A stretch of DNA of 64,000 nt from PVC group bacterium (GTDB lineage: Bacteria; Auribacterota; Erginobacteria; Erginobacterales; Erginobacteraceae), in NCBI GenBank assembly GCA_040773245.1, contig JAXGWO010000012.1:5292-69291 (forward strand), read 5' to 3'. Position 1 is the first letter of the stretch. Every line of letters starts with the position of its first letter. The translations under genes were made by a program, and so were the position numbers. Below the pieces are notes generated by a model that saw nothing but the letters and a program-made list of their open reading frames with translations, was not told the DNA's origin and did not search any database. Of this stretch, positions 2,718 through 36,948 are shown piece after piece.

Positions 2718-3848
2718 ATGGCCGTGATGCGTGGCATAGCCGGTAAAATCCTGCTGCTGGTTTTCTGCCTGGCGGGCCTGGAGCTTGCCCTTCGCCTGTA
2801 CGTGCATTTCCCCTCCCTGCCCGGCTCCCCGGCCGTGGCTTCGGCCACCCGTTGGGAGAGGTTGCCCGAGGTCACCAGGTGGAAGCTCCAGTTCCTCGAC
2901 CTCTACGAGGAACGGGGGCGGAAGGCCATCCCGATCAGCCAGAACGAGTATCGTCCCCACCCGGTTCTCGGCTGGGTGCCGAACCCCGGCCACAGCTTCA
3001 CCAATTCGGAGGGGCAGCGGTATACCACCAACCGCCAGGGGTTCCGCAGCCCGCGCGACTACGCCCTCGACGGCAGGTTCACCGTTCTGGTGGTCGGCGA
3101 CTCGTTCACCTACGGCTCCGGGGCGGACGACTCCGAGGTCTGGCCCACCATCCTCCAGGAGATGCGCCCCGACCTCAACGTCATCAATCTCGGCGTCGGC
3201 GCCTATGGGACCGACCAGATGCTCCTGATGCTCGAGGATCGCCTGCCGGAGTACCGGCCGGACCTGGTCATCGTCGCCTTTATCTCCGATGACCTGCACA
3301 GGACTCTGCTGCCGTTTCGGGATTACTGGAAGCCGTATTTTCGGATCGAGGACAGCTCCCTGGTCCTCCGGGGGACGCCGGTCCCGGAACTGTCCGAAGG
3401 GGTGAGGCGGATCCACCGCCAGGTGAGGTTATACAAGTTCCTCCGCCTGCTCGGCCGCTCCCGCGTTTTCGGTATCGTGCTCAATTTTCTGAACGAGGTA
3501 TTACCGGACACCTCAATTCTTCCCCCGGGGGACAAATACCGTTTGAACGAGCTGATCTTCGAGCGGATGCTTTCCTCGGCCCATTCGGCAGGATCGGAGG
3601 CGCTGTTGCTGTATCTGCCCGTCGATCGCGAACTGGTAGACCCGGACCTGGAGAGCCCGGGGGAGGATTTTCTCGCCCGGTTCACGGCCGGCCGCGATGT
3701 CCGCGTGCTCAACCCTCGTTCCCGTTTCCTGGAGAGCAAGCGGGAGTATAGCCGGGAGCATTACCGTCGCCCAGCTGCCGCCGTGGTCGCCGAGACAGTT
3801 TCCGCCGCCCTGGAATCGAATTCCGGTCCGGAACCGCCCGGACCTTGA
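2718..3848 (+). CDS. SGNH/GDSL hydrolase family protein with N-terminal membrane anchor
   Basis: TNRQGFR, VVGDSFTYG (block I), NLGVGAYGTDQ (block II), His near C-terminus; start uncertain (2718 or 2727). Confidence 0.8.
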   Translation: MAVMRGIAGKILLLVFCLAGLELALRLYVHFPSLPGSPAVASATRWERLPEVTRWKLQFLDLYEERGRKAIPISQNEYRPHPVLGWVPNPGHSFTNSEGQRYTTNRQGFRSPRDYALDGRFTVLVVGDSFTYGSGADDSEVWPTILQEMRPDLNVINLGVGAYGTDQMLLMLEDRLPEYRPDLVIVAFISDDLHRTLLPFRDYWKPYFRIEDSSLVLRGTPVPELSEGVRRIHRQVRLYKFLRLLGRSRVFGIVLNFLNEVLPDTSILPPGDKYRLNELIFERMLSSAHSAGSEALLLYLPVDRELVDPDLESPGEDFLARFTAGRDVRVLNPRSRFLESKREYSREHYRRPAAAVVAETVSAALESNSGPEPPGP

Positions 3849-3908
3849 TGCCGGTGGCGGTGGGAGAAAGATGGTCGTCGATGCTTGCCGCTCTGCCGGT
3901 ATGATCAG

Positions 3909-5441
3909 ATGAATACGAAACATCTGCGCGGATCGGCCGCCGGGCTGGGCCGGTATTTCTACCCGGCGGTATTTCTCGCCTCGTGTATCTACGTTCTGAT
4001 CCTGATCGGGAACTACGACATCAACTGGGTCCATCCGGAGGTGGTGAAGATCCAGCTTCCGGGGGTGGTGAGGAACGGGGTGGAGATCGTTCCCTGGGAT
4101 CTGCTGCGCGGTTTCGACGTGCAAAGCTTCGAATACGGGGGGCGTTCCCGCTTCGTCTCCTACTTCTTTCAGACTTTCAATATAAAACTCCGGCTGCTGC
4201 TCCTCCGGTTCATCCCCCCTCACCCCAGTTTCTCCCTCACCTGGGTATTTACCCTGCTGCTCGGCCCCATCCTGATCTTCCGGCTCATCCGGGAGCTGTC
4301 CGGCGAGCGCGAGGCGGCCTGGACCGGGGCGGCGCTGTTTCTCCTCTCCACGGGCACACTCTCCGGGGTGACGATGCTCTTCCACCCGGCCAAGCCGCTG
4401 GCCCTGTTCCTGGCGCTGCTCTGCTATTACCTGGCCGTCCGGATGGCGCGGACCTCCCAAAGCGACGGGTATTTCTCTCCGGCTTACAACCGGCGGCTAA
4501 TCGTCCTGCTGGTTCTTCTCTTGGCGGCCTGTTTCACCGACGAAGCGGCCTGGTTCATCTTTGTCTGCCTGGCGGTGGGGGTTCCCGGGCTTTACCGGGA
4601 GAGGCGGAAAGGCCTGATCACCGTCGGTCTTTACGCCGGCGTCTTTGCCGGTTTCCTGATCTTTGTCACCTGGGCGGCGCCGGTTATTACCAGGAACCTC
4701 TTCGGCCAGAAAAACTTCGACTTCTGGCGGATGGCCCTGACCCGGGGAGACCATTCCGTGCTGGTGGATTACTCTGTTCTTCACACCATCCGCATCGTCC
4801 GGGACGTGATAATGAACCAGCTTGCTCCCGTGTCGCGTCTCGGCCGCCTCCTGACCCCGACGCGGATAATCGTCTTATCCATATTAACGCCATACCTGGT
4901 CTGGTCCTTCATCCGGCAGTCCCCCGCCCGCCGGAGGCTGACCCTGCGGCTGGCGGCGGTTCTGCTGCTGTATCTTGCATATCAGTCCATCATCATCGAG
5001 AAGCGGGGCCGGGCGACGATCACGACATCCTACTATTACGGCAACCTGACGGCGATCTTCTCCACGCTCTCGCTGGCCCTGATTCTTTCCGCTCCCCGGG
5101 AACCGGACCGGACCCTGGGGAAGTGGGCCCTGGTCCTGCTGCTCGTCATCTACGCCTGTAACTTTAGGATGGTCAATCGTCACTGGCTTGACAGTCACGA
5201 GGCCAGGGCCAGGTCGATCTCCGCGAAATACTTTCCCCGGCAGGCGCTGAGGATGCGGGGGAAGAGTTTGACCCGGGAGATGGTCAGGGAGGCCTGGTGG
5301 TATCGCCGGGAGCCGGAGGTCATCCAACAGCTGCAGCCGGGGTTCCCGCTCAAGGCCCTGTGGCTGTTCGCGGAATTGGAACGGGTATACCCGCCTGAGG
5401 GTGATCGGGGGTATAATGCAGCCGGGGAGTTGAGACGATGA
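3909..5441 (+). CDS. Polytopic membrane protein, probable GT-C-fold glycosyltransferase-like
   Basis: About 11-13 hydrophobic segments plus soluble C-terminal tail; family assignment is inference. Confidence 0.55.
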   Translation: MNTKHLRGSAAGLGRYFYPAVFLASCIYVLILIGNYDINWVHPEVVKIQLPGVVRNGVEIVPWDLLRGFDVQSFEYGGRSRFVSYFFQTFNIKLRLLLLRFIPPHPSFSLTWVFTLLLGPILIFRLIRELSGEREAAWTGAALFLLSTGTLSGVTMLFHPAKPLALFLALLCYYLAVRMARTSQSDGYFSPAYNRRLIVLLVLLLAACFTDEAAWFIFVCLAVGVPGLYRERRKGLITVGLYAGVFAGFLIFVTWAAPVITRNLFGQKNFDFWRMALTRGDHSVLVDYSVLHTIRIVRDVIMNQLAPVSRLGRLLTPTRIIVLSILTPYLVWSFIRQSPARRRLTLRLAAVLLLYLAYQSIIIEKRGRATITTSYYYGNLTAIFSTLSLALILSAPREPDRTLGKWALVLLLVIYACNFRMVNRHWLDSHEARARSISAKYFPRQALRMRGKSLTREMVREAWWYRREPEVIQQLQPGFPLKALWLFAELERVYPPEGDRGYNAAGELRR

Positions 5442-5869
5442 GAAGAAGGCAGTTTCTTTCCCGGCTGTTTCAGCTGGCGCTGGGCTGGCTGGTGGGGGGG
5501 AGGGCGCTCCAGGCCTTCGCGGCCTTCACCGAGCGGGGGGTCTTCGACCTCGGGCCGGCCTCCGGCTTCCCCCCGGGGACGATCCGGCACCTGCTCTACC
5601 TGGAGGCCTTCATCGTCTCCGACGCCGAGGGGATTTACGCCCTCAACGCCCGCTGCACCCACCGGGGCGGGCCGCTCTTCAAGACCGAGAAGAACGACGC
5701 CCTGGTCTGCCGGAGGCACAACTCCCGCTTCGACCTCGCGGGGAAGGCCGTCCGGGGACCGGCCCACGAGCCCCTGGAGTGGGTCCGCCTGGAGAAGGAC
5801 GAGAAGGGACGGCTGATCCTCTACGCCCGCTACCGGGGGGAGAGGGGCGTGAAAATTCCCCACAGCTGA
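5438..5869 (+). CDS. Rieske [2Fe-2S] protein with Tat signal peptide
   Basis: MRRRQFL twin-arginine motif; CTH...CRRHNSRFD ligand boxes; ATGA overlap with upstream gene. Confidence 0.85.
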   Translation: MRRRQFLSRLFQLALGWLVGGRALQAFAAFTERGVFDLGPASGFPPGTIRHLLYLEAFIVSDAEGIYALNARCTHRGGPLFKTEKNDALVCRRHNSRFDLAGKAVRGPAHEPLEWVRLEKDEKGRLILYARYRGERGVKIPHS

Positions 5870-5878
5870 CGCCATACG

Positions 5879-5906
5879 GTAGGTCAGGCATTCCTGCCTG
5901 ACCTGC
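5879..5906. repeat. GTAG-type REP-like palindrome / terminator
   Basis: GTAGGTCAGGCA-TTCC-TGCCTGACCTGC, same CAGGCATTCCTG core as 1298-1325, between convergent genes. Confidence 0.7.
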
Positions 5907-5908
5907 CT

Positions 5909-6832
5909 TTAGTTCACCTGGAAGGTGGTGTCGCCGGTTTCGAAGAAGGCGACAATCTGTTTCGCGGCGGCCACCCCGGCGTTGAGGTTGGCCTCGGCGG
6001 TCTGGGCCCCCATCTTCTTCGGGGTGAAGAAGCAGCGGTTCCCGTCGCAGACCAGGATCTTGTCCTTGTTCCCGGGGGCGACGTCGGCGACGTACTTGAA
6101 GCCGGGACGCTCCTGGTAGATCTTCAGTAGGCTCTCCTCGTCGATGATCTCCGCCCGGGCGGTGTTGACCAGGACCGCGTCTTCCTTCATCAGCTTCATC
6201 AGGTCGTAGTTGACCGAACCCTTGGTCTCGGCGGTGGCCGGGATGTGGAGGGAGAGGACGTCGCTCTCCCGGTAGAGTTCCTCCAGGGAGTCGGCCGGGG
6301 TCACTCCGGCCTTCTTCATCACCTCGGCCGGGATGAAGGGGTCGAAGGCGATCACCTCCATCCCGAAGCCGCCGATGGCGATCTCGGCCACCCGCCTCGC
6401 GACGTGTCCGAAGGCCTGCAGGCCGAGGGTCTTCCCCTTCAGCTCGTGCCCCGACTTGCCGTCGTACTTCCCCCGGGCGGCCATAATCATCATCCCGATC
6501 GCCAGCTCGGCCACCGCGTTGGCGTTCTGCCCCGGGGTGTTCTCGACCACGATCCCCCGTTTCTTGGCGGCGGTGCAGTCGACGTTGTCGTAGCCGGCGC
6601 CGGCCCGGACCACCAGCTTCAGGTTCGGGGCGGCGGCCATCACCCCGTCGGTGACCTTGTCGCTGCGGACGATCAGGGCGTCGGCGTCCCCGACCGCCCC
6701 GATCAAGGCGGCCTGGTCGGAGTAGGATTCCAGCAGCTTCACCTCGTAGCCGGCCTCCATCAGGACGGCGGAGGTCCGGTCCCGGGCGTCGGCGGCGAAG
6801 GGTTTCTGGGTGGCGATCAGCACCTTGGGCAT
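5909..6832 (-). CDS. serA: D-3-phosphoglycerate dehydrogenase, short form without ACT domain (type IIIK-like)
   Basis: VRAGAGYDNVD, NTPGQNANAVAEL, VNTARAE, TPKKMGAQTAEAN; next to serC; AGAGGAG RBS before ATG 6832. Confidence 0.88.
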   Translation of the reverse strand: MPKVLIATQKPFAADARDRTSAVLMEAGYEVKLLESYSDQAALIGAVGDADALIVRSDKVTDGVMAAAPNLKLVVRAGAGYDNVDCTAAKKRGIVVENTPGQNANAVAELAIGMMIMAARGKYDGKSGHELKGKTLGLQAFGHVARRVAEIAIGGFGMEVIAFDPFIPAEVMKKAGVTPADSLEELYRESDVLSLHIPATAETKGSVNYDLMKLMKEDAVLVNTARAEIIDEESLLKIYQERPGFKYVADVAPGNKDKILVCDGNRCFFTPKKMGAQTAEANLNAGVAAAKQIVAFFETGDTTFQVN

Positions 6833-11331: not shown

Positions 11332-11837
11332 CCGTCAACGGAACCGAGAGACGGGTGGATGTGCGCCCCGCCGAGACCCTGCTCGACCTTCTCCGTCGGA
11401 TCGGCTGCACCTCGGTCAAGTACGGTTGCGGGGAGGGGGCTTGCGGGTCCTGCACCGTGATTATGGACGGCCGCCCGGTCAACTCCTGCCTGGTCCTGGC
11501 GGTGACCGCCGACCGGCGCGATATTATGACCGTGGACGGGCTGGGGACCCGGCTCCGTCCCCATCCCCTCCAGGCCGCCTTCGTCGAGGCGGGCGCGGTC
11601 CAGTGCGGGTACTGCACCCCGGGGATGATCCTCTCCTCCTGGGCGCTGCTGGAAAGGAACCCCGACCCCTCCGAGGGGGAGATCCGGCTGGCGATCGACG
11701 GCAACCTCTGCCGCTGCACCGGCTACGTCCAGATCGTCGAGGCGGTGAAACTGGCCGCGGGGAGGATGAAGAAGAAAAGGAAGAAGCCGCCGGCGAAGAA
11801 GAAGACCGCCGCCGGAAATCAGGGGAAGGAATCCTGA
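11316..11837 (+). CDS. Xanthine dehydrogenase family [2Fe-2S] subunit (CoxS-like)
   Basis: KYGCGEGACGSCTV, QCGYCTPG, NLCRCTGY; start corrected to ATG 11316. Confidence 0.93.
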   Translation: MEIVLTVNGTERRVDVRPAETLLDLLRRIGCTSVKYGCGEGACGSCTVIMDGRPVNSCLVLAVTADRRDIMTVDGLGTRLRPHPLQAAFVEAGAVQCGYCTPGMILSSWALLERNPDPSEGEIRLAIDGNLCRCTGYVQIVEAVKLAAGRMKKKRKKPPAKKKTAAGNQGKES

Positions 11838-11839
11838 CC

Positions 11840-14161
11840 GTGAAGCAAGAGAAATTCAACCAGGTCAGCACCCCGGTCGAGAAGGTTGACGGCCTCGGCC
11901 TGGCCCTGGGGCAGGCCCGCTTCACCGACGACATCTCCTTCCCGAATATGCTCCACGGCAAGCTCCTGCGCAGCCCCCACGCCCACGCCCGGATCAGGTC
12001 GATCGACACCTCAAAGGCGGAGAGGCTCCCCGGTGTGGCGGCGGTCTTCACCCACCGCGACGTCCCCCGGATCCCGATCACCACCGCCGGTCAGGGCTAC
12101 CCCGAGCCCTCCCCCTACGACGAGTTCATCCTCGACCGCAAGGTCCGCTTCGTCGGGGACAAGGTGGCCCTGGTGGCGGCCGAGTCGGCCGAGATCGCTG
12201 AGGAGGCCCTGAAACTGATCGAGGTCGAGTACGAGGTTCTTCCCGCGGTCCTCGACCCCCGAAAATCGATGCGGGCTTCGGCCCCGGTGATCCACGACGA
12301 GAAGGAATGCACCATCGCCATCCCCGTCCCTTACGAGCCGAAGATGAACCGGGTGGCCCGGGTGGAGGCGACCGTGGGGGATATCAAGCGGGGTGTAGCC
12401 GAGGCCGAGATGACGGTGGAGGACGAGTTCGAGAACCAGACCGCCAGCCACTCGGCGATGGAGCCCCACTGCTCGATCAGCCGCCTGGACGAGAACGGGC
12501 GTTTGGAGATCATCTCCACCACCCAGGTTCCCTTTCACTGCCGGCGGATCGTCTGCCGGGCGCTCCAGCTCTCCCCCCGGCAGGTTCGGGTGATCAAGCC
12601 CCGGTTGGGCGGCGGTTTCGGCGGCAAGCAGGAGGTCCTCCTCGAGCCCTACGTCGCCCTGATCACCCTGAAGACCGGCCGCCCGGCCAAGATGCGGCTG
12701 ACCCGCCGGGAGGTCTTCGCCTCCGCCCGGGTGCGGCACAATATGATCACCAAGGTCCAGGTGGCGGCGAAGAAGGACGGTGAGCTGACCGCGATCGACC
12801 TCTACGCCCTCTCCAACACCGGCCCCTACGGGACCCACGGCCTGACCGTGGCCTCCAACGTCGGGACCCGGACCCTGACGATGTTTCGCTGCCCCAACCT
12901 CCGCTTCTCCTCCGACGTGGTCTACACCAACCTGGCCGTCTCCGGGGCCTACCGCGGCTACGGGGGGACCCAGGGGATTTTAGCCACCGCGATCGCGATG
13001 GACGACCTGGCCGAGCGGTTGGGGATGGACCCGATGGACTTCTACCTGAAGAACGTCATCTCCGGCGGGACCGAGGTCCCGATCCTCAAGGAGCTGGGGG
13101 AGGGGCCCGTCCTCGGCCAGCCCCACATCGGCTCCTGCGAGCTGGCCGCCTGCATCCGGGCCGGGGCGGAGGCGATCGGCTGGAGGGAGAACCGGGGCCG
13201 CCCCGGCGGGGGCCGCTTCCGGCGGGGGATGGGGATGGCGGTGATGATGCAGGGCTCCTCGATCCCCTACATCGATATGGCCTCGGCCTTCATCAAGATG
13301 AACGAGGACGGCTCCTTCAACCTCCTGATGGGGGCGACCGAGATCGGCCAGGGCTCGGATACCGTCCTCTCCCAGATCGCCGCCGAGGTCCTCACCGTCC
13401 CCACCTCCGCGATCATCCCCTACTCCTCGGACACCGACCTCACCCCCTTCGACGTCGGAGCCTACGCCTCCTCCACCACGTACCTCTCGGGGATGGCGGT
13501 CAAGGAGACGGCCCAGAAGGTGAAGGAGCAGATCCTCGAGGTGGGGGCGAAGATGCTCGGGGTGAATAAGGAGCAGGTCGCGCTCGTCAACGGCCGGGTG
13601 CAGGGGCCGAAGAAGTCGGTGACCCTGGCCGAGATCGGCAGCCGGACCCTCTACCAGGAGGAGCAGTTCCAGATCGCGGCTTGCGCCTCCCGGATCTCTC
13701 ACGAGTCCCCGCCCCCCTTCGCCGCCCACTTCGTCGAGGTCGAGGTCGACCGGGCGACCGGGAAGGTCAGGGTGCTCCGCTACGTCCAGGCGGTCGACTG
13801 CGGGACCCCGATCAACCCGGTCCTGGCCCGGGGCCAGGCGATCGGGGCGTTGATCAACGGGATCAGCTACGCCCTGACCGAGCGCTACATCTACAGCAAG
13901 AAAGGGGCGATGCTCAACCCCAACTACGGCTACTACAAGATCTACACCAGCCGGGACGTCCCCGAGATCACCACCATCTTCGTCCCTTCCTACGAGGAGA
14001 CCGGCCCCTTCGGGGCCAAGTCGGTCGGCGAGATCTGCATCTCCGGGCCGCTCCCCGCCATCTCCAACGCCATCTACGACGCCGTCGACGTCCGCCTCCA
14101 CCGCACCCCGTTTACGCCGGACAAGGTCCTCGAGGCCATCCAGCTCCGGGAGCGGGGATAG
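11840..14161 (+). CDS. Xanthine dehydrogenase family molybdopterin-binding subunit
   Basis: RSPHAHA, GGGFGGK, AYRGYG, EIGQGS, GAKSVGE (catalytic Glu); GTG start 11840. Confidence 0.93.
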   Translation: MKQEKFNQVSTPVEKVDGLGLALGQARFTDDISFPNMLHGKLLRSPHAHARIRSIDTSKAERLPGVAAVFTHRDVPRIPITTAGQGYPEPSPYDEFILDRKVRFVGDKVALVAAESAEIAEEALKLIEVEYEVLPAVLDPRKSMRASAPVIHDEKECTIAIPVPYEPKMNRVARVEATVGDIKRGVAEAEMTVEDEFENQTASHSAMEPHCSISRLDENGRLEIISTTQVPFHCRRIVCRALQLSPRQVRVIKPRLGGGFGGKQEVLLEPYVALITLKTGRPAKMRLTRREVFASARVRHNMITKVQVAAKKDGELTAIDLYALSNTGPYGTHGLTVASNVGTRTLTMFRCPNLRFSSDVVYTNLAVSGAYRGYGGTQGILATAIAMDDLAERLGMDPMDFYLKNVISGGTEVPILKELGEGPVLGQPHIGSCELAACIRAGAEAIGWRENRGRPGGGRFRRGMGMAVMMQGSSIPYIDMASAFIKMNEDGSFNLLMGATEIGQGSDTVLSQIAAEVLTVPTSAIIPYSSDTDLTPFDVGAYASSTTYLSGMAVKETAQKVKEQILEVGAKMLGVNKEQVALVNGRVQGPKKSVTLAEIGSRTLYQEEQFQIAACASRISHESPPPFAAHFVEVEVDRATGKVRVLRYVQAVDCGTPINPVLARGQAIGALINGISYALTERYIYSKKGAMLNPNYGYYKIYTSRDVPEITTIFVPSYEETGPFGAKSVGEICISGPLPAISNAIYDAVDVRLHRTPFTPDKVLEAIQLRERG

Positions 14162-28058: not shown

Positions 28059-29549
28059 CTAACGGCCGAAGTGCCGGGTCATCCCGGCCAGCCGGTCGGC
28101 CAGTTCTCCGGTCAGCACCCCCGGAAGGCAGCGCCACTCCCACTGCCCGGCCGACTGTCCGGGGGCGTTCATCCTCGCCTCGCCCCCCAGCCCCAGGATG
28201 TCCTGGAGGGGGATGATGGTGAGGTCGGCGGCCGAGGCCAGCGCCCGCTTGATGAACTGCCAGTTGATCTCTTCCTGTCCGTCCTGGAAATAGTCGTGGA
28301 CGGATTTCTTCTCCTCCGGGTCGAGAGAAGAGAACCAGCCGACGGTGGTGTCGGTGTCGTGGGTCCCGGTGTAGGCCACCGAGTTGTAGGGGTAGAACTC
28401 GGGCCGGTGGGGGGAACCTTTCTTCCCCCGGAAGGCGAATTGGAGGACCCGGGTGGAGGAGAACTCCAGCAGCTCGAGGATCGCCTTGGCCTCCTCGAAG
28501 TGGACCGGCTCCAGGGCCTCGGCGATGATCGGCAGCGTCCCCAGCTTCTTCTCCAGCAGGCCGAAGAGCGAAGCCCCGGGGCCGTAAAACCACTGCCCCT
28601 CGGCCGAGCTGGCGGCATCGGTGGGGATGTGCCAGGCGACCACGAACCCGGAGAAGTGATCGACCCGGATCACGTCCACCATCTCGAGCACGGTCTTAAA
28701 CCGTCTCGTCCACCAGCCGAACCCGTCCTCCGACATCGCCACCCAGTCGTAGATGGGGTTGCCCCAGATCTGGCTGACCCCGGAGTGTCCGGTCATCGGG
28801 ACCCCGCCCAGGGCCCGCCGCTTGCCCTTCTCGTCGAGGAGAAAGAGTCGGCGGTTGGCCCAGACATCGGCGCTGTCGTAGCTGACCGGGAAGGGGATGT
28901 CCCCGATGATCTTCACCCCCCGCTCGTTGCAGTATCCGCGCAGCTTCTTCCACTGGCGGAAGAAGAGGAACTCGGCGAACTTGGTCTCCTCGATCCGGTC
29001 CGCCAGTTTCTTCGCCCATTTTTTTACCGCCGGCTCCCGGCGGAAGGCGATCTCCTTCGGCCACTCGTACCAGGGGGCGCCCCGGAAGTGGTCCTTGACC
29101 GCCTTGTAGAGGGCGTAATTCTCCAACCACGGGTTGTGCTCGACCTGAAAATCGGCGAAATTCTTCCTCCGGCGCTCCGAGGCTTCCTCCCGGAAGCGGC
29201 GCCAGGCCTTCTCCACCGCCTCCCGCTTCAGCCGGATCGCCTCGGGATAGGCCGCCCGGTCGGGGGGAAAACCCTCCCCGGGGGGGACTTCCTCCGGGGA
29301 GAGGAACCCCTCTTCGGCCAGCCGCTCGAGGCTGATCAGGGAGGGGGCGCCGGCGAAGGCCGAGGGGCTGGAGTAGGGGGAGTTGCCGTAGCCGATCGGG
29401 GTGATCGGCAGGACCTCCCAGAACCGTTGGCCGGCGTCCACCAGCCAGTCGACGAACTCGAACGCCTCCCGCCCCAGGGACCCGATCCCGTGGGGTCCGG
29501 GCAGGGAAGTGATGTGGAGGAGGACCCCCGATCCGCGTCTGAATTTCAT
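28059..29549 (-). CDS. malQ: 4-alpha-glucanotransferase (amylomaltase, GH77)
   Basis: [48 protein letters not shown]. Confidence 0.9.
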
Positions 29550-29666
29550 ATCATCCTATTCCTGGCCGCCGGATAAAGGCCGGCCCGATTTCGGCTTGCC
29601 ACCCGAAGATACTACTCGAAACGGACGAAAATCAATATGCTTTTGCTCGGGTCAAGCACTTACATT

Positions 29667-29702
29667 AAAAAATCTTCCCCTCGGGAGAGGGGAAGATTTT
29701 TT
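29667..29702. terminator. Intrinsic terminator downstream of tRNA-Phe
   Basis: AAAAAATCTTCCCCTC-GGGA-GAGGGGAAGATTTTTT perfect hairpin with A/T tails. Confidence 0.85.
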
Positions 29703-29704
29703 AA

Positions 29705-29777
<73 letters not shown>

Positions 29778-29835
29778 TTGATCCGATTTCCCTGCGCAAA
29801 TCGAAGATGGTCGTCCGGGAAGTTACGGTCGCACT

Positions 29836-29863
29836 ACTATACTGATTCCGATCTCCGTGGCAA
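29836..29863 (-). promoter_or_regulatory. Probable sigma70 promoter of tRNA-Phe
   Basis: TTGCCA-16 nt-TATAGT on the minus strand. Confidence 0.55.
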
Positions 29864-29873
29864 GCGAATTGTG

Positions 29874-30108
29874 CGCCGGGACGGCGAAACCCTGAGGGAC
29901 TTCCTCGAGGTCACCGGCTTTAAGAAGCTCAACGACGTCACCCCCCGCGGGGTCGAGAAGTTCAAGCACGACCGGCTGAAGAAGGCCAGCAAGCGGACCG
30001 TCAACCTCGAGGTCACGATGGCCAAGGCGATGTTCAACAAGCTGGTCGAGCTGGGGGTCATCCCCGAGAACCCGATCAAGGCCGTCAAGAAGATCCGGGA
30101 CCCGGAGT
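29874..30108 (+). pseudogene. Tyrosine integrase fragment (core-binding/SAM-like domain)
   Basis: LNDVTPRGVEKFKHDRLKKASKRTVNLEVTMAKAMFNKLVELGVIPENP resembles phage-integrase N-terminal domains; no proper start and no catalytic domain. Confidence 0.7.
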
Positions 30109-30263
30109 CAATATGCCACGGAGGAACGATGTTTTTTGGAATTATTTCCCCGTTCCGATCACGTCCGCCCCCCCCGGCGGCGATGTGTAAATAACTCAGG
30201 GTTGGCTCCTCCCCCGCGCTTTTCCTACTATTCTCCGCCTGCTTGGTGTTATTCTGTTTCCGT

Positions 30264-31487
30264 ATGAAGAATATCCTGATCTTTAACTGCGGGAGTTCAT
30301 CTTTGACCTGCAAGGCGTTCTCCACGGACGGATCGGGGAGGATCGAACCGATTTTAGCCGCAAAAGCCCACCGGGTCGGAGTGCAGGGCAGCGATCCTTC
30401 TTTCATCGAGTATCGGTTCTCGGGCAAGCTGACAGTGGATCGCCAGCCGGTCAATACTCACTCCGAAGCCGCCGGCCGTGTCGCGGGTTTTATCCGGGAA
30501 AATAACATCACAATCGATTGTCTGGGACATCGGTTCGCCCACGGAGGAAGCTTATTCCGGAATTCGGTCTGGCTTGATCCTGAAGTCAGGGAGGGACTCC
30601 GCCGCTGTCTCCACCTGGCGCCGATTCACAACCCGTTTTCCCTGAGCGTGATCACCACCAGCGACCATTCTTTCCCCGGGTTGCCCCAGTATGTTTCCTT
30701 CGATACGGCTTTCCACGCCGATCTGCCCGGGCCCGCCTACACCTATGCCCTGCCCCGAGCGCTGCTCGCTCAATTCGGATTTCGCAAATATGGTTTCCAC
30801 GGACTCTCGTATCAGCACGTGGTCGAAGAGACGTTTCGTTTGAGAGCAACCGGAGACAAAGAGACGAAAATCATCGCCTGCCACCTCGGTACCGGCGGCG
30901 CCAGCGTGGCGGCCATCCGGGACGGCTGTTCCGTCGACACCTCGATGGGCTACTCTCCCCTGCCGGGGTTGATTATGAGCACCCGCTGCGGGGATATCGA
31001 TCCGATGCTAACGGTTTATTTAATGACCGTATATGGTTACGGACTGGATCAGCTGGAGCAAATAATGAACAAACGGAGCGGGTTGCTGGGGGTGAGCAAC
31101 TTCTCCAGCGATATCCGGGACCTGATCAGCCGGTTCGGCGGATCGGAAGGGCCGGCGGCCCGGCTCGCCTTCGAGATGTACATCGATCGTCTGAAAAAAT
31201 ACATCGGGAGCTACGCGGTGGTGCTGGGAGGAACGGATGTCCTGGTGTTTACGGATGATATCGGGGTGCGCAACCCCCTGGTGCGGGAGAAAGTATGCGC
31301 GGGGATGGAATGGCTGGGGATAAAACTCGACCCGGAACGAAACCGGGCGGCTGACCCCGCGGCGGCATTTCACTGCGGCGCCGAAGATTCCCGGGTGGAT
31401 ATTCTCGTCATCCCTCCGGAAGAGGAATTGATCATCTGCCGGGAAGGACTGAAATTAATGGGAGGCGGCAATGATCGCGTTGTTTGA
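30264..31487 (+). CDS. ackA: Acetate kinase family protein, Entamoeba-like (candidate PPi-dependent)
   Basis: NCGSSS, GHRFAHGG, LAPIHNP, FDTAFH, YGFHG, HLGTGG, DTSMG, TRCGDIDP, EEE; start ATG 30264. Confidence 0.9.
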   Translation: MKNILIFNCGSSSLTCKAFSTDGSGRIEPILAAKAHRVGVQGSDPSFIEYRFSGKLTVDRQPVNTHSEAAGRVAGFIRENNITIDCLGHRFAHGGSLFRNSVWLDPEVREGLRRCLHLAPIHNPFSLSVITTSDHSFPGLPQYVSFDTAFHADLPGPAYTYALPRALLAQFGFRKYGFHGLSYQHVVEETFRLRATGDKETKIIACHLGTGGASVAAIRDGCSVDTSMGYSPLPGLIMSTRCGDIDPMLTVYLMTVYGYGLDQLEQIMNKRSGLLGVSNFSSDIRDLISRFGGSEGPAARLAFEMYIDRLKKYIGSYAVVLGGTDVLVFTDDIGVRNPLVREKVCAGMEWLGIKLDPERNRAADPAAAFHCGAEDSRVDILVIPPEEELIICREGLKLMGGGNDRVV

Positions 31488-32532
31488 TCCCGCTCCTCCC
31501 GCTCTGAGATGGTGCCGGATAACGGGGGGAGAGCGCATTGAGGGATCCTGTCCTTTCGGATCGAACTGGTCTCGAGAAATGGATCAACAGTTTCCCGATC
31601 TGAACCGGGCGGAGGTGATCGGCTACAAGCTCTACCACGGGGGCGGGGAGTTCAGGGATACGGTTTCCCGGATTGACCGCCGCACTCCCTCTCGATTGTC
31701 CCGTTGCCTCGGCTGGTTGCCGGAATATAATGACATTACCGCAAAAGTCGTCCGTTATGGGATGGGATGGTCCCCGGCGCCGCAGGTATTGTTTTGCGAC
31801 ACCGCCTTTTTCGCCGAACTTCCGGAACACGTCAGCGCCTATGCCTTGCCTCTGGAGTTGCGGAAAAACGGGATCCGCAAATACGGGGGGCACGGCGTGG
31901 GACATTCCTGGTCCTGGCGGGAAACGCAGCGTTTCTTCCCGGGGGAAGCGGAGCGGGTGATCAGCGTCTATCTGGGAAATAATACCAGCGCGGCGGCTAT
32001 CCTGAACGGCCGGGCGGTGGAGACCAGCATCGGTTTCACCCCGGCGGAAGGAATGCCGACGGCCACCGGCTGCGGCAGCATTGATCCGACCATTATCTTT
32101 CAACTCCGGTCGGCGGGATTCTCCTTCGAAGAAATCAACCGGCTGCTCACCCGGGAAAGCGGCTTTACCGGGCTGCGGGGAAGTCATTGCTCGCTCTCCG
32201 ATCTGCTGGCGGGCCTGTCCGATCCGGAACTCGCGCCGATTTATGCCCTATACCGCTATCGGCTGATGAAGTATATCGGAGCGTTCATTTCACCCCTGGG
32301 CGGCGTTGACGCGATTGTTTTTTTCAGCGAGATGATGGAGACTGCTCGTGATCTGGTCATTGATATCTGCCGGGACCTGGTTTTTCTCGGCGTCTCGCCC
32401 GCCGCCGCGCCCGGGACAAAAAACGGAGAGATGCTTTTTACCGGGGAGGATTCCCGGGTCCGGGTATTGGGTCTGTCCTACAACGGATGGTCGGTAATGG
32501 CCCGGGAGGCGGCCCGGATCGGCCGGGGATGA
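31471..32532 (+). CDS. Degenerate acetate-kinase paralog (probable pseudokinase)
   Basis: Keeps HGG, DTAF, YALP, KYGGHG, TSIGFTP, GSIDP, ESG, LGGVDAIVF; lacks NxGSSS, both catalytic Arg residues and the C-terminal Glu. Confidence 0.8.
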   Translation: MIALFDPAPPALRWCRITGGERIEGSCPFGSNWSREMDQQFPDLNRAEVIGYKLYHGGGEFRDTVSRIDRRTPSRLSRCLGWLPEYNDITAKVVRYGMGWSPAPQVLFCDTAFFAELPEHVSAYALPLELRKNGIRKYGGHGVGHSWSWRETQRFFPGEAERVISVYLGNNTSAAAILNGRAVETSIGFTPAEGMPTATGCGSIDPTIIFQLRSAGFSFEEINRLLTRESGFTGLRGSHCSLSDLLAGLSDPELAPIYALYRYRLMKYIGAFISPLGGVDAIVFFSEMMETARDLVIDICRDLVFLGVSPAAAPGTKNGEMLFTGEDSRVRVLGLSYNGWSVMAREAARIGRG

Positions 32533-32572
32533 TTTCGCGGGAGTGATAAATATTTCAGCCAAGGAGGAAATA

Positions 32573-33367
32573 ATGACCGAGGAAAAAAGTTTTTTGATGG
32601 ATGTCGGGTTGAGTTCCCTGCCGTTCCCGATTCGGGTTCCTTCCCGAAACAATCCCGATGGACAATACACCATCGCCGAGATCTCGATTCAGGCCCGGAT
32701 TATGCAGGAATTCGAGGCCCGGTGGATCGATAAATTCATTCAGATCATCCACCGTCACCGGGATCGAATCGGCGCCGATACGATTCGAACCAACATCGTG
32801 GATTATCTGGCCGAATTGAAGGCGTCTATGGTCCGGACCGAATTTCAGTATCCCTTCTTCGTGGAAAAGTTGACCCCGATCTCCCGGGAGAAATGCCTGG
32901 TTAAATACCAGTGCTCTTATTCCGCCAAGACCACCGCTTCGGACCACAAGGCGATGATCGCCTTTCGGATAGACATCCCGATCATTACCACCTATCCCGG
33001 CTCGGTTATTCAGGAACTGGGAGGCTTATTCGGTCAGCTCAGCGTGGTCAGCCTGGAGATTCATTCCCGGGAAGATATGTTTCCCGAAGATCTGGTTGAA
33101 ATGGTTGACCGCCACGCCCTGGCTCCGGTTTATTCCTTTCTGACTCCGGATGATCAGGCCGGTGTCATCAAGACAATTCATTCCAGCTCAAAATCCTCGG
33201 TCACCGTCACCGACGGAATAAAAGACGAACTCGCCAGCAACCCGAGTATCGACTGGTACGCCGTGCGGTGCGTTAATCACGGGATGCTCCATCCATATAC
33301 CACGGTCATCGGGACCGAAAAAAGTATGTGGGTTCCCTTTAGCGGCTATGAAGCCGGAGAGATTTAA
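32573..33367 (+). CDS. GTP cyclohydrolase FolE2/MptA-like T-fold protein lacking catalytic residues
   Basis: DVGLSSLPFPI, YPFFVEKLTP, VKYQC, EDLVE, PVYSFL...D, WYAV.C.N...LH align with FolE2; AAGGAGG RBS. Confidence 0.75.
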   Translation: MTEEKSFLMDVGLSSLPFPIRVPSRNNPDGQYTIAEISIQARIMQEFEARWIDKFIQIIHRHRDRIGADTIRTNIVDYLAELKASMVRTEFQYPFFVEKLTPISREKCLVKYQCSYSAKTTASDHKAMIAFRIDIPIITTYPGSVIQELGGLFGQLSVVSLEIHSREDMFPEDLVEMVDRHALAPVYSFLTPDDQAGVIKTIHSSSKSSVTVTDGIKDELASNPSIDWYAVRCVNHGMLHPYTTVIGTEKSMWVPFSGYEAGEI

Positions 33368-33634
33368 TTGATAAGAAATTGCTTTCCGCTGGTTTCCTCG
33401 GTTTCCCCGGTCAAGAGGTGGAACGAGGTTGCGGCTGTGATTATCGCGGTAAGCCGCCCCAAGAATCCGTAACGGAAACCTGCAGGGAAGAGGACGGAGC
33501 TCCGCCCCGGGCTTTCTTCCCTGGCGTATCTTTTCCTTGCCGGAAGATTTTTGCCGGTTTGTCACAAATCGGTGCTTCCGGTCGGGGAGAACTCCCATCT
33601 GAAAATTGCCGATTCGAGGTCCGAGGGGAGGGGA

Positions 33635-34447
33635 ATGATGAAAATATCGGGAGGAAACATCTGGACGGCCGTGGAGAAAATCCGCCGCTCCGCGCCGCTG
33701 GTCCACAACATCACCAACTACGTGGTGATGAACACCACGGCCAACGCCCTGCTCGCCCTGGGCGCCTCCCCGGTGATGGCCCACGCCGAAGAAGAGGTGC
33801 GCGATATGGTCGGACTGGCCGGGGCCCTGGTCGTCAACCTGGGGACGATCAGCGCTCCCTGGGTCCGTTCGGCGGAGCTGGCGATGGAAGAAGCGGCCGC
33901 GCGCCGGGTCCCCGTGGTCTTCGACCCGGTCGGCGCCGGCGCCACCCCTTACCGGACCGACACCTTCCGCCGGCTGGTCTCCGCCCGCCCGCCGGCCGTC
34001 ATCCGGGGCAACCCCTCGGAGATTATGGCGCTGGCCGGCGGTCCGGCCGGGACCAAGGGGGTGGACAGCACCGAGCGGGCCCCGAGCGCCCTGTCCGCGG
34101 CCGCCGGCCTGGCCCGGGAACTGGGCGTCGCGGTCTGCGTCAGCGGCGAGATTGATTACATCGTCGGGGGCGGGAGAACCCTGCGGATCGGAAACGGCCA
34201 TCCCCTGATGACCCGGGTGACCGGCCTGGGCTGCACGGCCTCGGCTCTCTGCGGGGCTTTCGCCGCGGTGGAACCCGATCCAATCTTCGCCGCCGCCGCC
34301 GCGATGGCCGTCCTCGGCATCGCCGCCGAAACGGCGGCGGAAGGGGCGGCCGGCCCCGGATCCCTCCAGTACCGCCTGCTCGACGCGCTTTACCGGCTCG
34401 ACGGGGAGACGATCCGCCGCCGGCTGAAGGCCGGGGAGGGGGAGTGA
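33635..34447 (+). CDS. thiM: Hydroxyethylthiazole kinase
   Basis: PLVHNITNYV, LALGASPVMA, NLGT, DPVGAGAT, RGNPSEI, VTGLGC. Confidence 0.95.
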   Translation: MMKISGGNIWTAVEKIRRSAPLVHNITNYVVMNTTANALLALGASPVMAHAEEEVRDMVGLAGALVVNLGTISAPWVRSAELAMEEAAARRVPVVFDPVGAGATPYRTDTFRRLVSARPPAVIRGNPSEIMALAGGPAGTKGVDSTERAPSALSAAAGLARELGVAVCVSGEIDYIVGGGRTLRIGNGHPLMTRVTGLGCTASALCGAFAAVEPDPIFAAAAAMAVLGIAAETAAEGAAGPGSLQYRLLDALYRLDGETIRRRLKAGEGE

Positions 34448-35073
34448 AAGGTTTATACCTGGTTGCCGACCCCGCCGCCTGCGCCGGGCGGCCGCTCGAT
34501 CGGGTCGTCCGGGAAGCGGCCGCGGGCGGCGCCTCCTGGGTCCAGCTGAGAGAAAAGCGGGCCTCGACGCGGGCCTTCGTCGAGGCGGCGCGCGTCCTCC
34601 AAGAGATCCTGGATCCTCTCGGGGTGCCCCTGATCATCAACGACCGGGTTGACGTGGCCCTCGCCGTCGGCGCCGCCGGCGTCCACCTGGGCCAGGCCGA
34701 TCTGCCCTCCCGGATTGCCCGGGAGCTGCTGGGCACGGAGGCCCTGGTCGGGCTCTCGGTGGAGACCTGGGAGGACGCGGAAGCGGCCCAGGAACTGGAG
34801 GTGGATTACCTGGGGGTCAGCCCGATCTTCCCCACCCCGACCAAGACCGACACCCGTGGTGCCTGGGGTCTCGAGGGTCTGGCCCGGCTGCGCGCTTTCT
34901 CCCGCCACCGGTTGGTCGCCATCGGCGGGCTCAACGCCGCCAACGCGGCGGCGGCGATCCGGGCGGGCGCCGACGCGGTCGCCGTTGTCTCCGCGGTCTG
35001 TTCGGCGCCGGACCCCGGCCGGGCCGCCCGGGAACTGAGCGGGATCATCGCGGCCGCCGGTCGGGGGAGATGA
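34444..35073 (+). CDS. thiE: Thiamine-phosphate synthase
   Basis: LYLV, VQLREK, IINDRVDVA, GVHLGQ, PTPTK, VAIGG. Confidence 0.95.
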   Translation: MKGLYLVADPAACAGRPLDRVVREAAAGGASWVQLREKRASTRAFVEAARVLQEILDPLGVPLIINDRVDVALAVGAAGVHLGQADLPSRIARELLGTEALVGLSVETWEDAEAAQELEVDYLGVSPIFPTPTKTDTRGAWGLEGLARLRAFSRHRLVAIGGLNAANAAAAIRAGADAVAVVSAVCSAPDPGRAARELSGIIAAAGRGR

Positions 35074-36194: not shown

Positions 36195-36948
36195 TCGCGC
36201 CCTCGATGTAGCTCCGGGTCAGGTCCCGGCGGGGGGAGGAGAAGAACTCCGCCGCCGGGGCGGCCTCGATCAGCTCCCCCAGGTAGAGGAAGACCACGTA
36301 ATCGGCCAGCCGCCGGGCCTGGCGGAGGATGTGGGTGACGATCACGATCGTGTAGTCCTGCTTCAGCTCGAGGAACCTCTCCTCGATCGCCCGGCTGGAG
36401 GCGGGGTCGAGCGCCGAGGTCGGCTCGTCGCCGAGGATGATCTCCGGCTCCACCGCCAGCCCCCGGGCCAGGCAGAGCCGCTGCCGCTGGCCGACCGAGA
36501 GCCGGGAGGCCGGGGCGTGGAGCTTCCCCTTCACCTCCTCCCAGAGCTGGGCTTCCCTCAGCCGCCGCTCGACGATCTCCTTCAGGCGGCGCCGGTCCCG
36601 GACCCCGTGGATCCGGGGGCCGTAGGCGACGTTCTCGAAGATCGACATCGGCAGGACGAAGGGGGTCTGGGAGAGCAGGCCCATCTTCTTCCGGATCGCC
36701 GTCACCTCGACCCCCGGCCGGTGGATATCCTCCCCGTCCACCTCGATCTTCCCCGAGACGGCGGTTCCCTCGACCAGTTCCAGCATCCGGTTGAAGGTCT
36801 TCAGCAGTGTCGACTTCCCGCAGCCGGAGGGCCCGATGATGGCGGTGATCTTCCGGGCCGGGATGGCAAGGTTGATATCCTTCAGGGCCTGTTCCCGGCC
36901 GTAAAAGACGTTGAGGTTCTTGACCTGGATATGGGTTTCGCTCGGCAT
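36187..36948 (-). CDS. pstB: Phosphate ABC transporter ATP-binding protein
   Basis: GPSGCGKST, SIFENVAYG, LSVGQRQRL, DEPTSALDP, IVTH. Confidence 0.9.
   Translation of the reverse strand: MPSETHIQVKNLNVFYGREQALKDINLAIPARKITAIIGPSGCGKSTLLKTFNRMLELVEGTAVSGKIEVDGEDIHRPGVEVTAIRKKMGLLSQTPFVLPMSIFENVAYGPRIHGVRDRRRLKEIVERRLREAQLWEEVKGKLHAPASRLSVGQRQRLCLARGLAVEPEIILGDEPTSALDPASSRAIEERFLELKQDYTIVIVTHILRQARRLADYVVFLYLGELIEAAPAAEFFSSPRRDLTRSYIEGAIS

Follow-up and report, generated by a model that had tools for sequence, protein, structure and literature searches.

The acetate kinase (ACK) of Entamoeba histolytica (EhACK) has been described as 'the only known ACK' using inorganic pyrophosphate (PPi) or orthophosphate (Pi) (PMC5517563, 2017) and PPi-dependent ACK as 'found only in Entamoeba histolytica' (PMC5931981, 2018); EhACK was still cited as the sole case in 2025 (PMC12632266). 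The structure of EhACK is PDB entry 4H0O (PMC5517563). Five of its residues, T201, D322, Q323, M324 and E327, are said to occlude the ATP cleft (PMC5931981). An extra residue, Gly203, lengthens the PHOSPHATE2 motif, and its deletion on top of Q323G-M324I gave an inactive enzyme (PMC5517563). Swaps between Gln323-Met324 and the Gly-Ile of ATP-dependent ACK converted neither enzyme, and occlusion was judged 'not the sole determinant' (PMC5517563). Acetate kinase has also been listed among the genes that were laterally acquired by the archamoebal ancestor (PMC8136499). Here we describe ACK2, a bacterial protein with the motifs of EhACK, encoded in a stretch of 64,000 nucleotides (the window) from a PVC group bacterium of the Auribacterota (assembly GCA_040773245.1, contig JAXGWO010000012.1, positions 5,292 to 69,291). 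An earlier note, made from this DNA alone, had proposed that the protein is a PPi-forming acyl kinase and possibly a relative of the donor of the amoebal gene. At the sequence level, the signature of the Entamoeba enzyme characterises a large bacterial subfamily found in many phyla, a result that goes beyond the note.

ACK2 is an Entamoeba-type member of the acetate kinase family

The ACK2 gene is an intact ATG-to-stop frame encoding 407 aa (protein P0001); the strand opposite contains no open frame and many stops. The protein matched Pfam family PF00871 over nearly the whole profile (positions 2–391 of 392) with 344.9 bits (E 6.3e-103; cut-off 22) and passed the cut-off of subfamily TIGR00016 (341.1 versus 293.4 bits). 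ACK2 is a member of the acetate/propionate kinase family, far beyond chance. It scored below all of the NCBIfam equivalog cut-offs for AckA and propionate kinases: NF009045 (279.8 versus 580), NF005462 (278.7 versus 486), NF009063 (260.4 versus 659), NF009099 (256 versus 693) and NF005520 (249 versus 561). An AlphaFold2 model of ACK2 had a mean predicted local distance difference test score (pLDDT) of 86.8. In a Foldseek comparison with the PDB, the ACK and propionate kinase chains within the top 20 ranks, whether from bacteria, archaea, Entamoeba or fungi, gave template modelling (TM) scores of 0.81–0.86.

All of the motifs listed in the earlier note were found in P0001: GSSSLT at residues 10–15, GHRF at 88–91, APIHNP at 119–124, (F)HGLSY at 178–183, HLGTGGAS at 207–214, MSTRCGDIDP at 238–247 and VFTDDIG at 328–334. 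The catalytic Arg, His, Asp and Glu residues are kept, as the note had stated: R90, H122, D147, H179, R241 and E387 correspond to Arg91, His123, Asp148, His180, Arg241 and Glu384 of the Methanosarcina thermophila enzyme (MtACK), whose numbering is used below for aligned positions. The hallmarks of the canonical ATP site, whose roles are described in PMC4390882 and PMC5517563, are replaced. Lys14 reads Thr15 in PHOSPHATE1, Asn211 reads Thr210 with an extra Gly in PHOSPHATE2, Gly239 reads Ser239 in LOOP3, and Gly331 and Asn335 read Asp332 and Arg336 in ADENOSINE; the exchange of the pocket Gly for Asp had been noticed before. The Ala reported at the Val93 position is indeed there (Ala92) and turned out to be a minority state (9/141 rows of the insertion-type family described below). 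With its catalytic core and acetate pocket kept, ACK2 would be a catalytically competent acyl (acetate/propionate) kinase.

Among solved structures ACK2 scored best against EhACK, in line with the comparison that the note had suggested: a search of PDB sequences returned 4h0o_A first (332.9 bits), followed by MtACK (285.7) and Thermotoga ACK (281.2). Identity to native E. histolytica ACK (P0512) was 44% (177/402; 325 bits), as against 37% (153/412; 258 bits) to the canonical AckA of the same genome. In the Foldseek alignments, identity was 42–43% for 4h0o, 32–37% for the listed chains of ATP-dependent bacterial and archaeal ACKs and propionate kinases, and 24% for the fungal chain 4h0p. The EhACK motifs given in the note (HLGTGG, FTDQM) were correct; in the alignments, P0512 and the 4h0o chain read GSSSLT, HLGTGGSS, MSTRCGDIDP and VFTDQMG. 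ACK2 and EhACK thus share, against the ATP-dependent ACKs, GSSSLT for GSSSLK (loss of Lys14), HLGTGG[AS]S for HLGNG-S (one residue more), MSTRCGDIDP for MGTRCGSIDP and VFTD(D/Q)(I/M)G for VFTAGIG. Common to both are also Asp at Ala330, a residue other than Gly at Gly331 and other than Asn at Asn335, every catalytic residue, and the Ser of EhACK at the LOOP3 Gly239 position (PMC4390882). Of the five occluding EhACK positions, two are identical in ACK2 (Thr210 and Asp331), two carry other non-canonical residues (Asp332 and Arg336) and one has the canonical Ile (Ile333). At the Val93 position ACK2 has Ala and EhACK Val.

Canonical AckA, represented by MtACK (PDB 1G99/1TUY), resembles ACK2 in fold (TM 0.85–0.88), in Pfam and TIGRFAM subfamily, in catalytic residues and in the acetate pocket. 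ACK2 differs from it in overall sequence (≈37% identity), in a PHOSPHATE2 motif that is one residue longer, and in the replacement of Asn211, Gly239, Gly331, Glu334, Asn335 and Lys14, all six. The propionate kinases TdcD and PduW (Salmonella, Klebsiella) belong to the same family and share Ala at the Val93 position with ACK2; the titles of PDB entries 4xh4 and 4xh5 name Ala88 variants of StTdcD, the equivalent of Ala92. ACK2 is nevertheless far from these enzymes, with only 238.6 bits to PDB 1x3m and the low score against the equivalog cut-off of 580 given above, and TdcD has canonical ATP motifs, unlike ACK2.

A literature search on PPi-dependent acetate kinases, with subscription journals largely uncovered, returned only work on Entamoeba or papers citing it. 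PPi-dependent acetate kinase is reported as not detected in Desulfobulbus propionicus (PMC3072085). For a PPi:acetate activity of Desulfotomaculum no supporting text was found, and it was not used as evidence.

Insertion-type ACKs are widespread in bacteria

Of 8000 candidates scored in a word-indexed protein search with ACK2, 7989 had E ≤ 1e-10. HLGTGG[SA]S was present in 120/120 of the homologues listed, that is, the best 120 of the 7989 (52–91% identity). Their sources include metagenome-assembled genomes (MAGs) of Omnitrophota, Elusimicrobia, Phycisphaerae/Sedimentisphaerales, Kiritimatiellae, Sumerlaeota, Acidobacteria and Ca. Euphemobacter; further insertion-type sequences came from Anaerolineaceae, Myxococcales, Thermoguttaceae, Bipolaricaulota and Ca. 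Susulua. In an exhaustive search of representatives at 50% identity (14930 matches at E ≤ 1e-3), 17 of the best 150 were of the insertion type, two of them truncated. One of the 17 is the ACK of Entamoeba dispar (P0128), at 333 bits; it matched 4h0o with 834 bits. A scan of contigs with two alignment patterns, one of which also matches canonical AckA, gave at least 80 loci. Of the 80 listed, four (L012–L015) were of the insertion type, and the other 76 (35–42% identity) were left out.

We aligned 263 sequences, namely members of P0001–P0271 that were 330–520 aa long and six proteins read from loci; the counts that follow come from this set, which is biased to top matches and has non-independent rows. 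The insertion-type rows have Asp at Ala330 (141/141) and lack Gly at Gly331 (139/141), where Asp predominates (128, with Ser in 5, Glu, Gly and Thr in 2 each, and Tyr and Gln in 1 each). They have Ser at Gly239 in 133/141, Thr at Asn211 in 137/141 and Val, Leu or Ile at Glu334 in 127/141. By comparison, 116 of the 122 non-insertion rows keep Gly331 and 112 keep Glu334, and 120 have a gap in PHOSPHATE2. Arg91, His123, Asp148, His180, Arg241 and Glu384 are invariant (141/141 insertion-type rows), and the acetate pocket is largely constant: the Val93 position is Val in 130/141 and Ala in the nine noted above, Phe179 occurs in 141/141 and Pro232 in 132/141. Two subtypes can be told apart. Subtype A, which holds ACK2 and Entamoeba, has HLGTGG, GSSSL[TSN] and FTDDIG; subtype B has HLGSGG, GSSSLK and FTD[ST][IV]GE.

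Two hosts deserve mention. In genome G010 (96% complete) an insertion-type gene, at G010:C15:63983-65155 (L099), is the sole ACK-family match, and neither a canonical AckA nor a gene for the partner protein described below was found there. G010 is thus a natural test case for an insertion-type ACK acting alone. The cultured planctomycete Thermogutta terrifontis is reported to have two acetate kinases and no phosphotransacetylase (PMC5673643), and the insertion-type representative P0124 comes from a Thermoguttaceae MAG; a cultured host of an insertion-type ACK may therefore exist.

Insertion-type ACKs and EhACK form one clade

Trees were built after deletion of the four motif blocks. In a tree of 72 rows (IQ-TREE quick search, LG+C20 with posterior mean site frequencies, PMSF), 30 insertion-type rows including Entamoeba lay on one side of a branch with a support of 99 in the SH-like approximate likelihood ratio test (SH-aLRT), and the genome's own AckA lay on the opposite side. 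FastTree on the 263 rows gave the same division: 142/142 insertion-type rows formed one clade (support 0.995). The tree check proposed in the earlier note hence placed ACK2 with Entamoeba and apart from ordinary AckA. A common origin of insertion-type ACKs and EhACK is well supported by both trees.

The position of Entamoeba within this clade is less clear. FastTree put it beside P0134 and a Bipolaricaulota MAG protein (support 0.80), and in the quick 72-row tree it was nested beside P0122. When the 29 bacterial rows were held together, the resulting tree was 7.1 log-likelihood units better and was not rejected in the approximately unbiased (AU) test (p 0.598). In this constrained tree Entamoeba is sister to all of the bacterial rows and still within the clade of 30, on a stem of 0.46. 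We therefore dropped the placement of Entamoeba inside the bacterial clade. The trees fit both a nested and a sister position, and rows other than the window's lineage stand nearest to Entamoeba in them. The suggested kinship with the donor of the amoebal gene accordingly holds at the level of the clade, and not for nesting or for this lineage as the nearest one.

A degenerate ACK paralogue is encoded next to ACK2

The gene downstream of ACK2 encodes a second, shortened ACK homologue (the partner; Table 1). The two genes overlap by 17 nt, and a GGGAGG Shine-Dalgarno-like site GGGAGGCGGCAATGATCG precedes the ATG of the partner. The protein is 31% identical to ACK2; it matched only positions 77–385 of the PF00871 profile (164.3 bits) and remained under the TIGR00016 cut-off (162.4 versus 293.4 bits). 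Some 40 residues are absent from the N-terminal hairpin, and GSSS reads APPA. In the window's partner Arg91 is changed to Lys and Arg241 to Gly, Glu384-Glu385 are lost, and so are the motifs PHOSPHATE1, PHOSPHATE2 and ADENOSINE. This degeneration is general: the Arg241 position was not Arg (Gly, Ser, Thr or other) in 12/12 partners, the Arg91 position was not Arg in 9/11 of those covering it, and the His123 and His180 positions vary across the partner family. The family has 243 homologues at E ≤ 1e-5, called 'hypothetical protein' by NCBI, and an alignment of 22 sequences has 24 invariant columns of its own. To judge by its sequence, the partner gene is not decaying.

In 12/14 loci examined, across phyla and for either subtype, a partner gene lies downstream of the insertion-type ACK gene; L015 and G010 do not have this arrangement. 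Genes for an ACK2-type protein and a partner were adjacent in 9/41 genomes searched of the phylum, and the two proteins have adjacent locus tags in one Elusimicrobia MAG. In a complex prediction, ACK2 with its partner scored 0.93 and the best of three controls 0.00; the mark that this score passes was reached by 58/80 solved complexes and 2/110 mismatched pairs. Contact agreement between runs was at least 98%, and the pLDDT of the partner was at least 91. Since ACK homodimers are among the solved structures, the pass may only show a retained dimer interface or likeness. Read with this limit, the prediction supports an ACK2–partner heterodimer. In contrast to ACK2, which is followed by genes for a dead paralogue and a FolE2-like protein, EhACK is active as a homodimer. 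The literature searched, including PMC4207490, had nothing on dead ACK subunits or pseudoenzymes. That ACK2 is coupled to such a paralogue and linked to a FolE2-like gene is new here and goes beyond the earlier note.

As a separate observation, distant partner matches included fusions of an ACK domain (PF00871) with PduL (PF06130), 583–614 aa long (P0379, P0380, P0384, P0385 and P0387–P0389).

The third gene encodes a divergent T-fold protein

The third gene of the cassette encodes a T-fold protein of the FolE2/MptA family. Its PF02649 match is full-length (68 bits), yet it does not reach the FolE2 equivalog NF010200 (57.8 versus 215 bits). It is homologous to the solved FolE2 structures 2r5r (67.5 bits), 8g6c and 3d2o. 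The 'SLCPCS' stretch of FolE2 (2r5r, 8g6c) reads 'TTYPGS' in the T-fold protein, and several polar blocks are also replaced. The Cys residues of the FolE2 Cys-Pro-Cys-Ser stretch bind metal. Within the T-fold subfamily, identity across phyla is 59–84%, and there are invariant His, Cys, Glu and Asp residues of its own. The gene adjoins ACK2 in 5/14 loci: those of the window, G008, G031, a Myxococcales MAG and an Acidobacteria MAG. A full-length copy was found in 3/41 genomes of the phylum (that of the window, G000, together with G008 and G031), always adjacent, and the same three, and no others, have an ACK2 of at least 56% identity; G040 has only an 85-aa fragment. Database matches of the three cassette genes also agree in the length of the longest contig (452993, 67626 and 4064 are examples), a soft hint of linkage at most, as short lengths may agree by accident. 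The genome also contains a separate canonical FolE (225 bits), so that the T-fold copy is not needed for folate synthesis.

Genomic setting of the cassette and host metabolism

The three genes lie in a stretch of low GC content next to a tRNA gene and an integrase remnant (Table 1). The remnant, on residues 79–154 of the open reading frame (ORF) at 29637-30194, also matched Phage_int_SAM_5 (17.6 bits), and DNA related to it occurs elsewhere in same-genus genomes.

Table 1. Features of the window around ACK2
Feature	Coordinates	Strand	Basis
Low-GC stretch with the tRNA gene, the integrase remnant and the three-gene cassette	29500..33500	.	GC 0.53-0.59 vs 0.65-0.73 in the flanks
tRNA-Phe (GAA)	29705..29777	-	ARAGORN; Rfam tRNA 74.8 bits
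Phage-type integrase remnant, N-terminal SAM-like domain only, without catalytic domain	29837..30194	+	Int_N PF24624 34.1 bits
ACK2, insertion-type (Entamoeba-type) acetate/propionate-family kinase	30264..31487	+	PF00871, TIGR00016, motifs, best PDB match 4h0o
Partner (353 aa), catalytically degenerate paralogue of ACK with a shortened N-terminus	31471..32532	+	PF00871 164.3 bits
FolE2/MptA-family T-fold protein, divergent subfamily, 264 aa	32573..33367	+	PF02649 68 bits; ORF opens at GTG 32543

The order galE–malQ–tRNA-Phe is conserved in 4/4 same-genus genomes (G001–G004), and this synteny ends at the tRNA gene. The cassette was not found in any of the four. In G002, G003 and G004 neither thiM, thiE nor the cassette was found after tRNA-Phe, so that there is no clean empty site for comparison. 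Cassette DNA was found elsewhere only in G008, a genome of another genus, where it lies in a different context beside pta (TIGR00651, 359 bits versus a cut-off of 311) and is 77–84% identical at the DNA level; galE and malQ of G008 are only 72–74% identical to those of the window. No att-like direct repeats were found around 29300–34200, and the integrase remnant lies 5' of the tRNA gene; the classical insertion at a tRNA 3' end is thus not shown. On the evidence of GC content, the synteny break and patchy distribution, and of these only, the cassette looks horizontally acquired.

Some further observations concern the neighbourhood. Between malQ and the tRNA-Phe gene, directly at the 3' end of the latter, 29663-29706 holds a perfect inverted repeat of 20 nt and a T/A run, which together resemble a terminator hairpin. 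Two stretches of ≈100–130 nt, 33363-33490 and 36402-36520, match many contigs of G001, G002 and G004 (68–92% identity) and look like a dispersed small repeat or a MITE-like (miniature inverted-repeat transposable) element of the genus. No thiamine pyrophosphate (TPP) riboswitch was detected at the Rfam gathering score in 33368-33550, upstream of thiM (33551-34447) and thiE (34444-35073); genes of this type are often preceded by one. In L012, from an Acidobacteria MAG, the cassette lies between a gene of the ADP-forming acetyl-CoA synthetase type (3834-6014; domains ATP-grasp_5, Succ_CoA_lig and CoA_binding) and a canonical AckA gene (11622-12875; 485 bits), which brings three different acetate-forming enzymes together within 9 kb.

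The assembly (3.04 Mb in 94 contigs) is 96.5% complete and has three PF00871 genes: ACK2, the partner, and on another contig a canonical AckA with 467 bits and the motif HLGNGAS. It also encodes Pta (431 bits), pyruvate phosphate dikinase (PPDK; 1268 bits, over the cut-off) and a membrane H+-pumping pyrophosphatase (860.7 bits).

Discussion

We propose that ACK2 most likely exchanges phosphate between acetyl phosphate (acetyl-P) and Pi/PPi, and hold this with moderate confidence. In-line phosphoryl transfer from acetyl-P to the acceptor would proceed via Arg91, His123, Asp148, His180, Arg241 and Glu384. The adenosine site would be remodelled by the extra Gly and the Thr for Asn211 in PHOSPHATE2, by the Ser for Gly239 in LOOP3, and by Asp-Asp for Ala330-Gly331 together with the loss of Glu334 and Asn335 in ADENOSINE. 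With such a site, the acceptor or donor would be Pi or PPi, and we infer the physiological direction acetyl-P + Pi → acetate + PPi. Acetyl-P may be supplied by the genome's Pta; the PPi formed would feed PPDK and the H+-pumping pyrophosphatase, and ATP-linked acetate formation would be left to the separate canonical AckA. ACK2 would be co-translated with the dead paralogue, which probably takes one subunit place of the ACK homodimer, as a scaffold or a regulatory subunit. In an inner subclade, the pair is linked to a putatively neofunctionalised FolE2-like T-fold protein, the three genes together making up a putative mobile cassette that looks horizontally acquired.

The strongest argument beyond resemblance comes from the mutants of EhACK. 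Since changing Gln323-Met324 to Gly-Ile gave no ATP use, the determinants must lie elsewhere, and the candidates left are the features common to the bacterial clade. On this argument, what really bars ATP use would be the features that the whole clade shares.

Several observations weigh against Pi/PPi use by ACK2. The near-equal TM scores over all types of chain mean that the fold does not separate PPi-type from ATP-type enzymes. Unlike EhACK, ACK2 has Asp-Ile and Arg in place of Gln323-Met324 and Glu327, and as neither enzyme was converted by mutation, the motifs are no proof of donor choice. The branch to Entamoeba is long (1.66), and with Entamoeba as sister not rejected, PPi dependence could have arisen on the amoebal branch alone. 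Our literature search found no published assay of a bacterial insertion-type ACK. As to the host, no phosphoketolase was found in the genome, and of its two genes of the phosphofructokinase (PFK) family one is an ATP-type equivalog and the other remains under the cut-off of the PPi-PFK subfamily (226 versus 273 bits). Finally, an enzyme so tightly linked to a dead paralogue and a T-fold protein may do more than serve plain acetate formation.

ACK2 may instead be a paralogue of ATP- or NTP (nucleoside triphosphate)-dependent acetate/propionate kinases with an altered pocket (purine-only or GTP preference, lower affinity), PPi dependence being a later speciality of Entamoeba. We regard this as a serious but doubtful alternative. 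Gly331Gln and Gly331Ala variants of MtACK still use ATP, with a shift towards purines (PMC4390882), and the occluding residues are insufficient to switch specificity in either direction (PMC5517563). The lack of the Gln-Met and Glu327 of EhACK in ACK2 and the sister position of Entamoeba to all of the bacterial rows, which was not rejected, would fit as well. So would LOOP4, where Asp283 and Arg285, the latter stacking on adenine in MtACK, are kept (Arg285 in 125/141 rows). Against this, Gly331, Glu334 and Asn335 are lost throughout the clade, and the negative Asp-Asp pair comes to lie where the α and β phosphates and the ribose are in MtACK (role of Gly331: PMC4390882). Variants of MtACK at Gly331 and Asn211 lose 6- to 200-fold activity, the reversion of Gln-Met in EhACK did not restore ATP use, and the genome already has a canonical AckA.

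An unlikely alternative is that 'acetate kinase' is a misnomer, and that the ACK2–partner heterodimer uses a small acid other than acetate, or a different phosphoryl partner, connected with the T-fold enzyme, such as formate, a phosphate ester split off a purine or pterin substrate, or polyphosphate. The enzymes FolE2 and MptA release formate, and MptA also PPi. The three genes occur together across phyla, at the five loci named above; the T-fold gene and a close ACK2 co-occur perfectly, in the same 3/41 genomes and always adjacent. The T-fold protein is more conserved than ACK2, with invariant residues of its own, and folate synthesis is covered by the separate FolE. However, the residues of the acetate pocket are as in MtACK, the T-fold gene is missing at 7/12 loci with a partner gene, and pta adjoins the cassette in G008. 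Moreover, one member of the clade, EhACK, does act on acetyl-P and acetate, and it does so as a homodimer that has no such partners. That ACK2 has no current function and is decaying while carried along by a degraded mobile element would agree with the low GC content, the integrase remnant and the patchy distribution but is highly improbable: its frame is intact and its catalytic and family-invariant residues are all kept, the same holds for the residues that are invariant in the families of the partner and the T-fold gene, and the G008 copy, in which ACK2 is 82% identical at the protein level (77% at the DNA level over ACK2 and partner), has all three frames intact.

If insertion-type ACKs use Pi/PPi, as we favour for ACK2, many anaerobes would have a second branch of acetate fermentation that conserves PPi. 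An enzyme type long assumed to be 'amoeba-only' becomes testable in bacteria. What determines donor choice could be worked out from natural variation, where point-mutant swaps have failed, and the idea that the amoebal gene came from bacteria would have a concrete clade as its source. With its constant dead-paralogue partner, an enzyme known only as a homodimer would have its first heteromeric form. A wider and quite tentative idea, to which we give considerably less credence than to Pi/PPi use by ACK2, is that the cassette is a mobile, multi-phylum 'PPi module', in which a heterodimer of live and dead ACK interconverts acetyl-P + Pi and acetate + PPi alongside a T-fold enzyme; insertion-type ACKs would then be bacterial PPi:acetate phosphotransferases and the stock from which the enzyme of the Archamoebae came. 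If true, this would amount to a general PPi-based mode of energy conservation in uncultured anaerobes of the Omnitrophota, Planctomycetota, Elusimicrobia and Acidobacteria.

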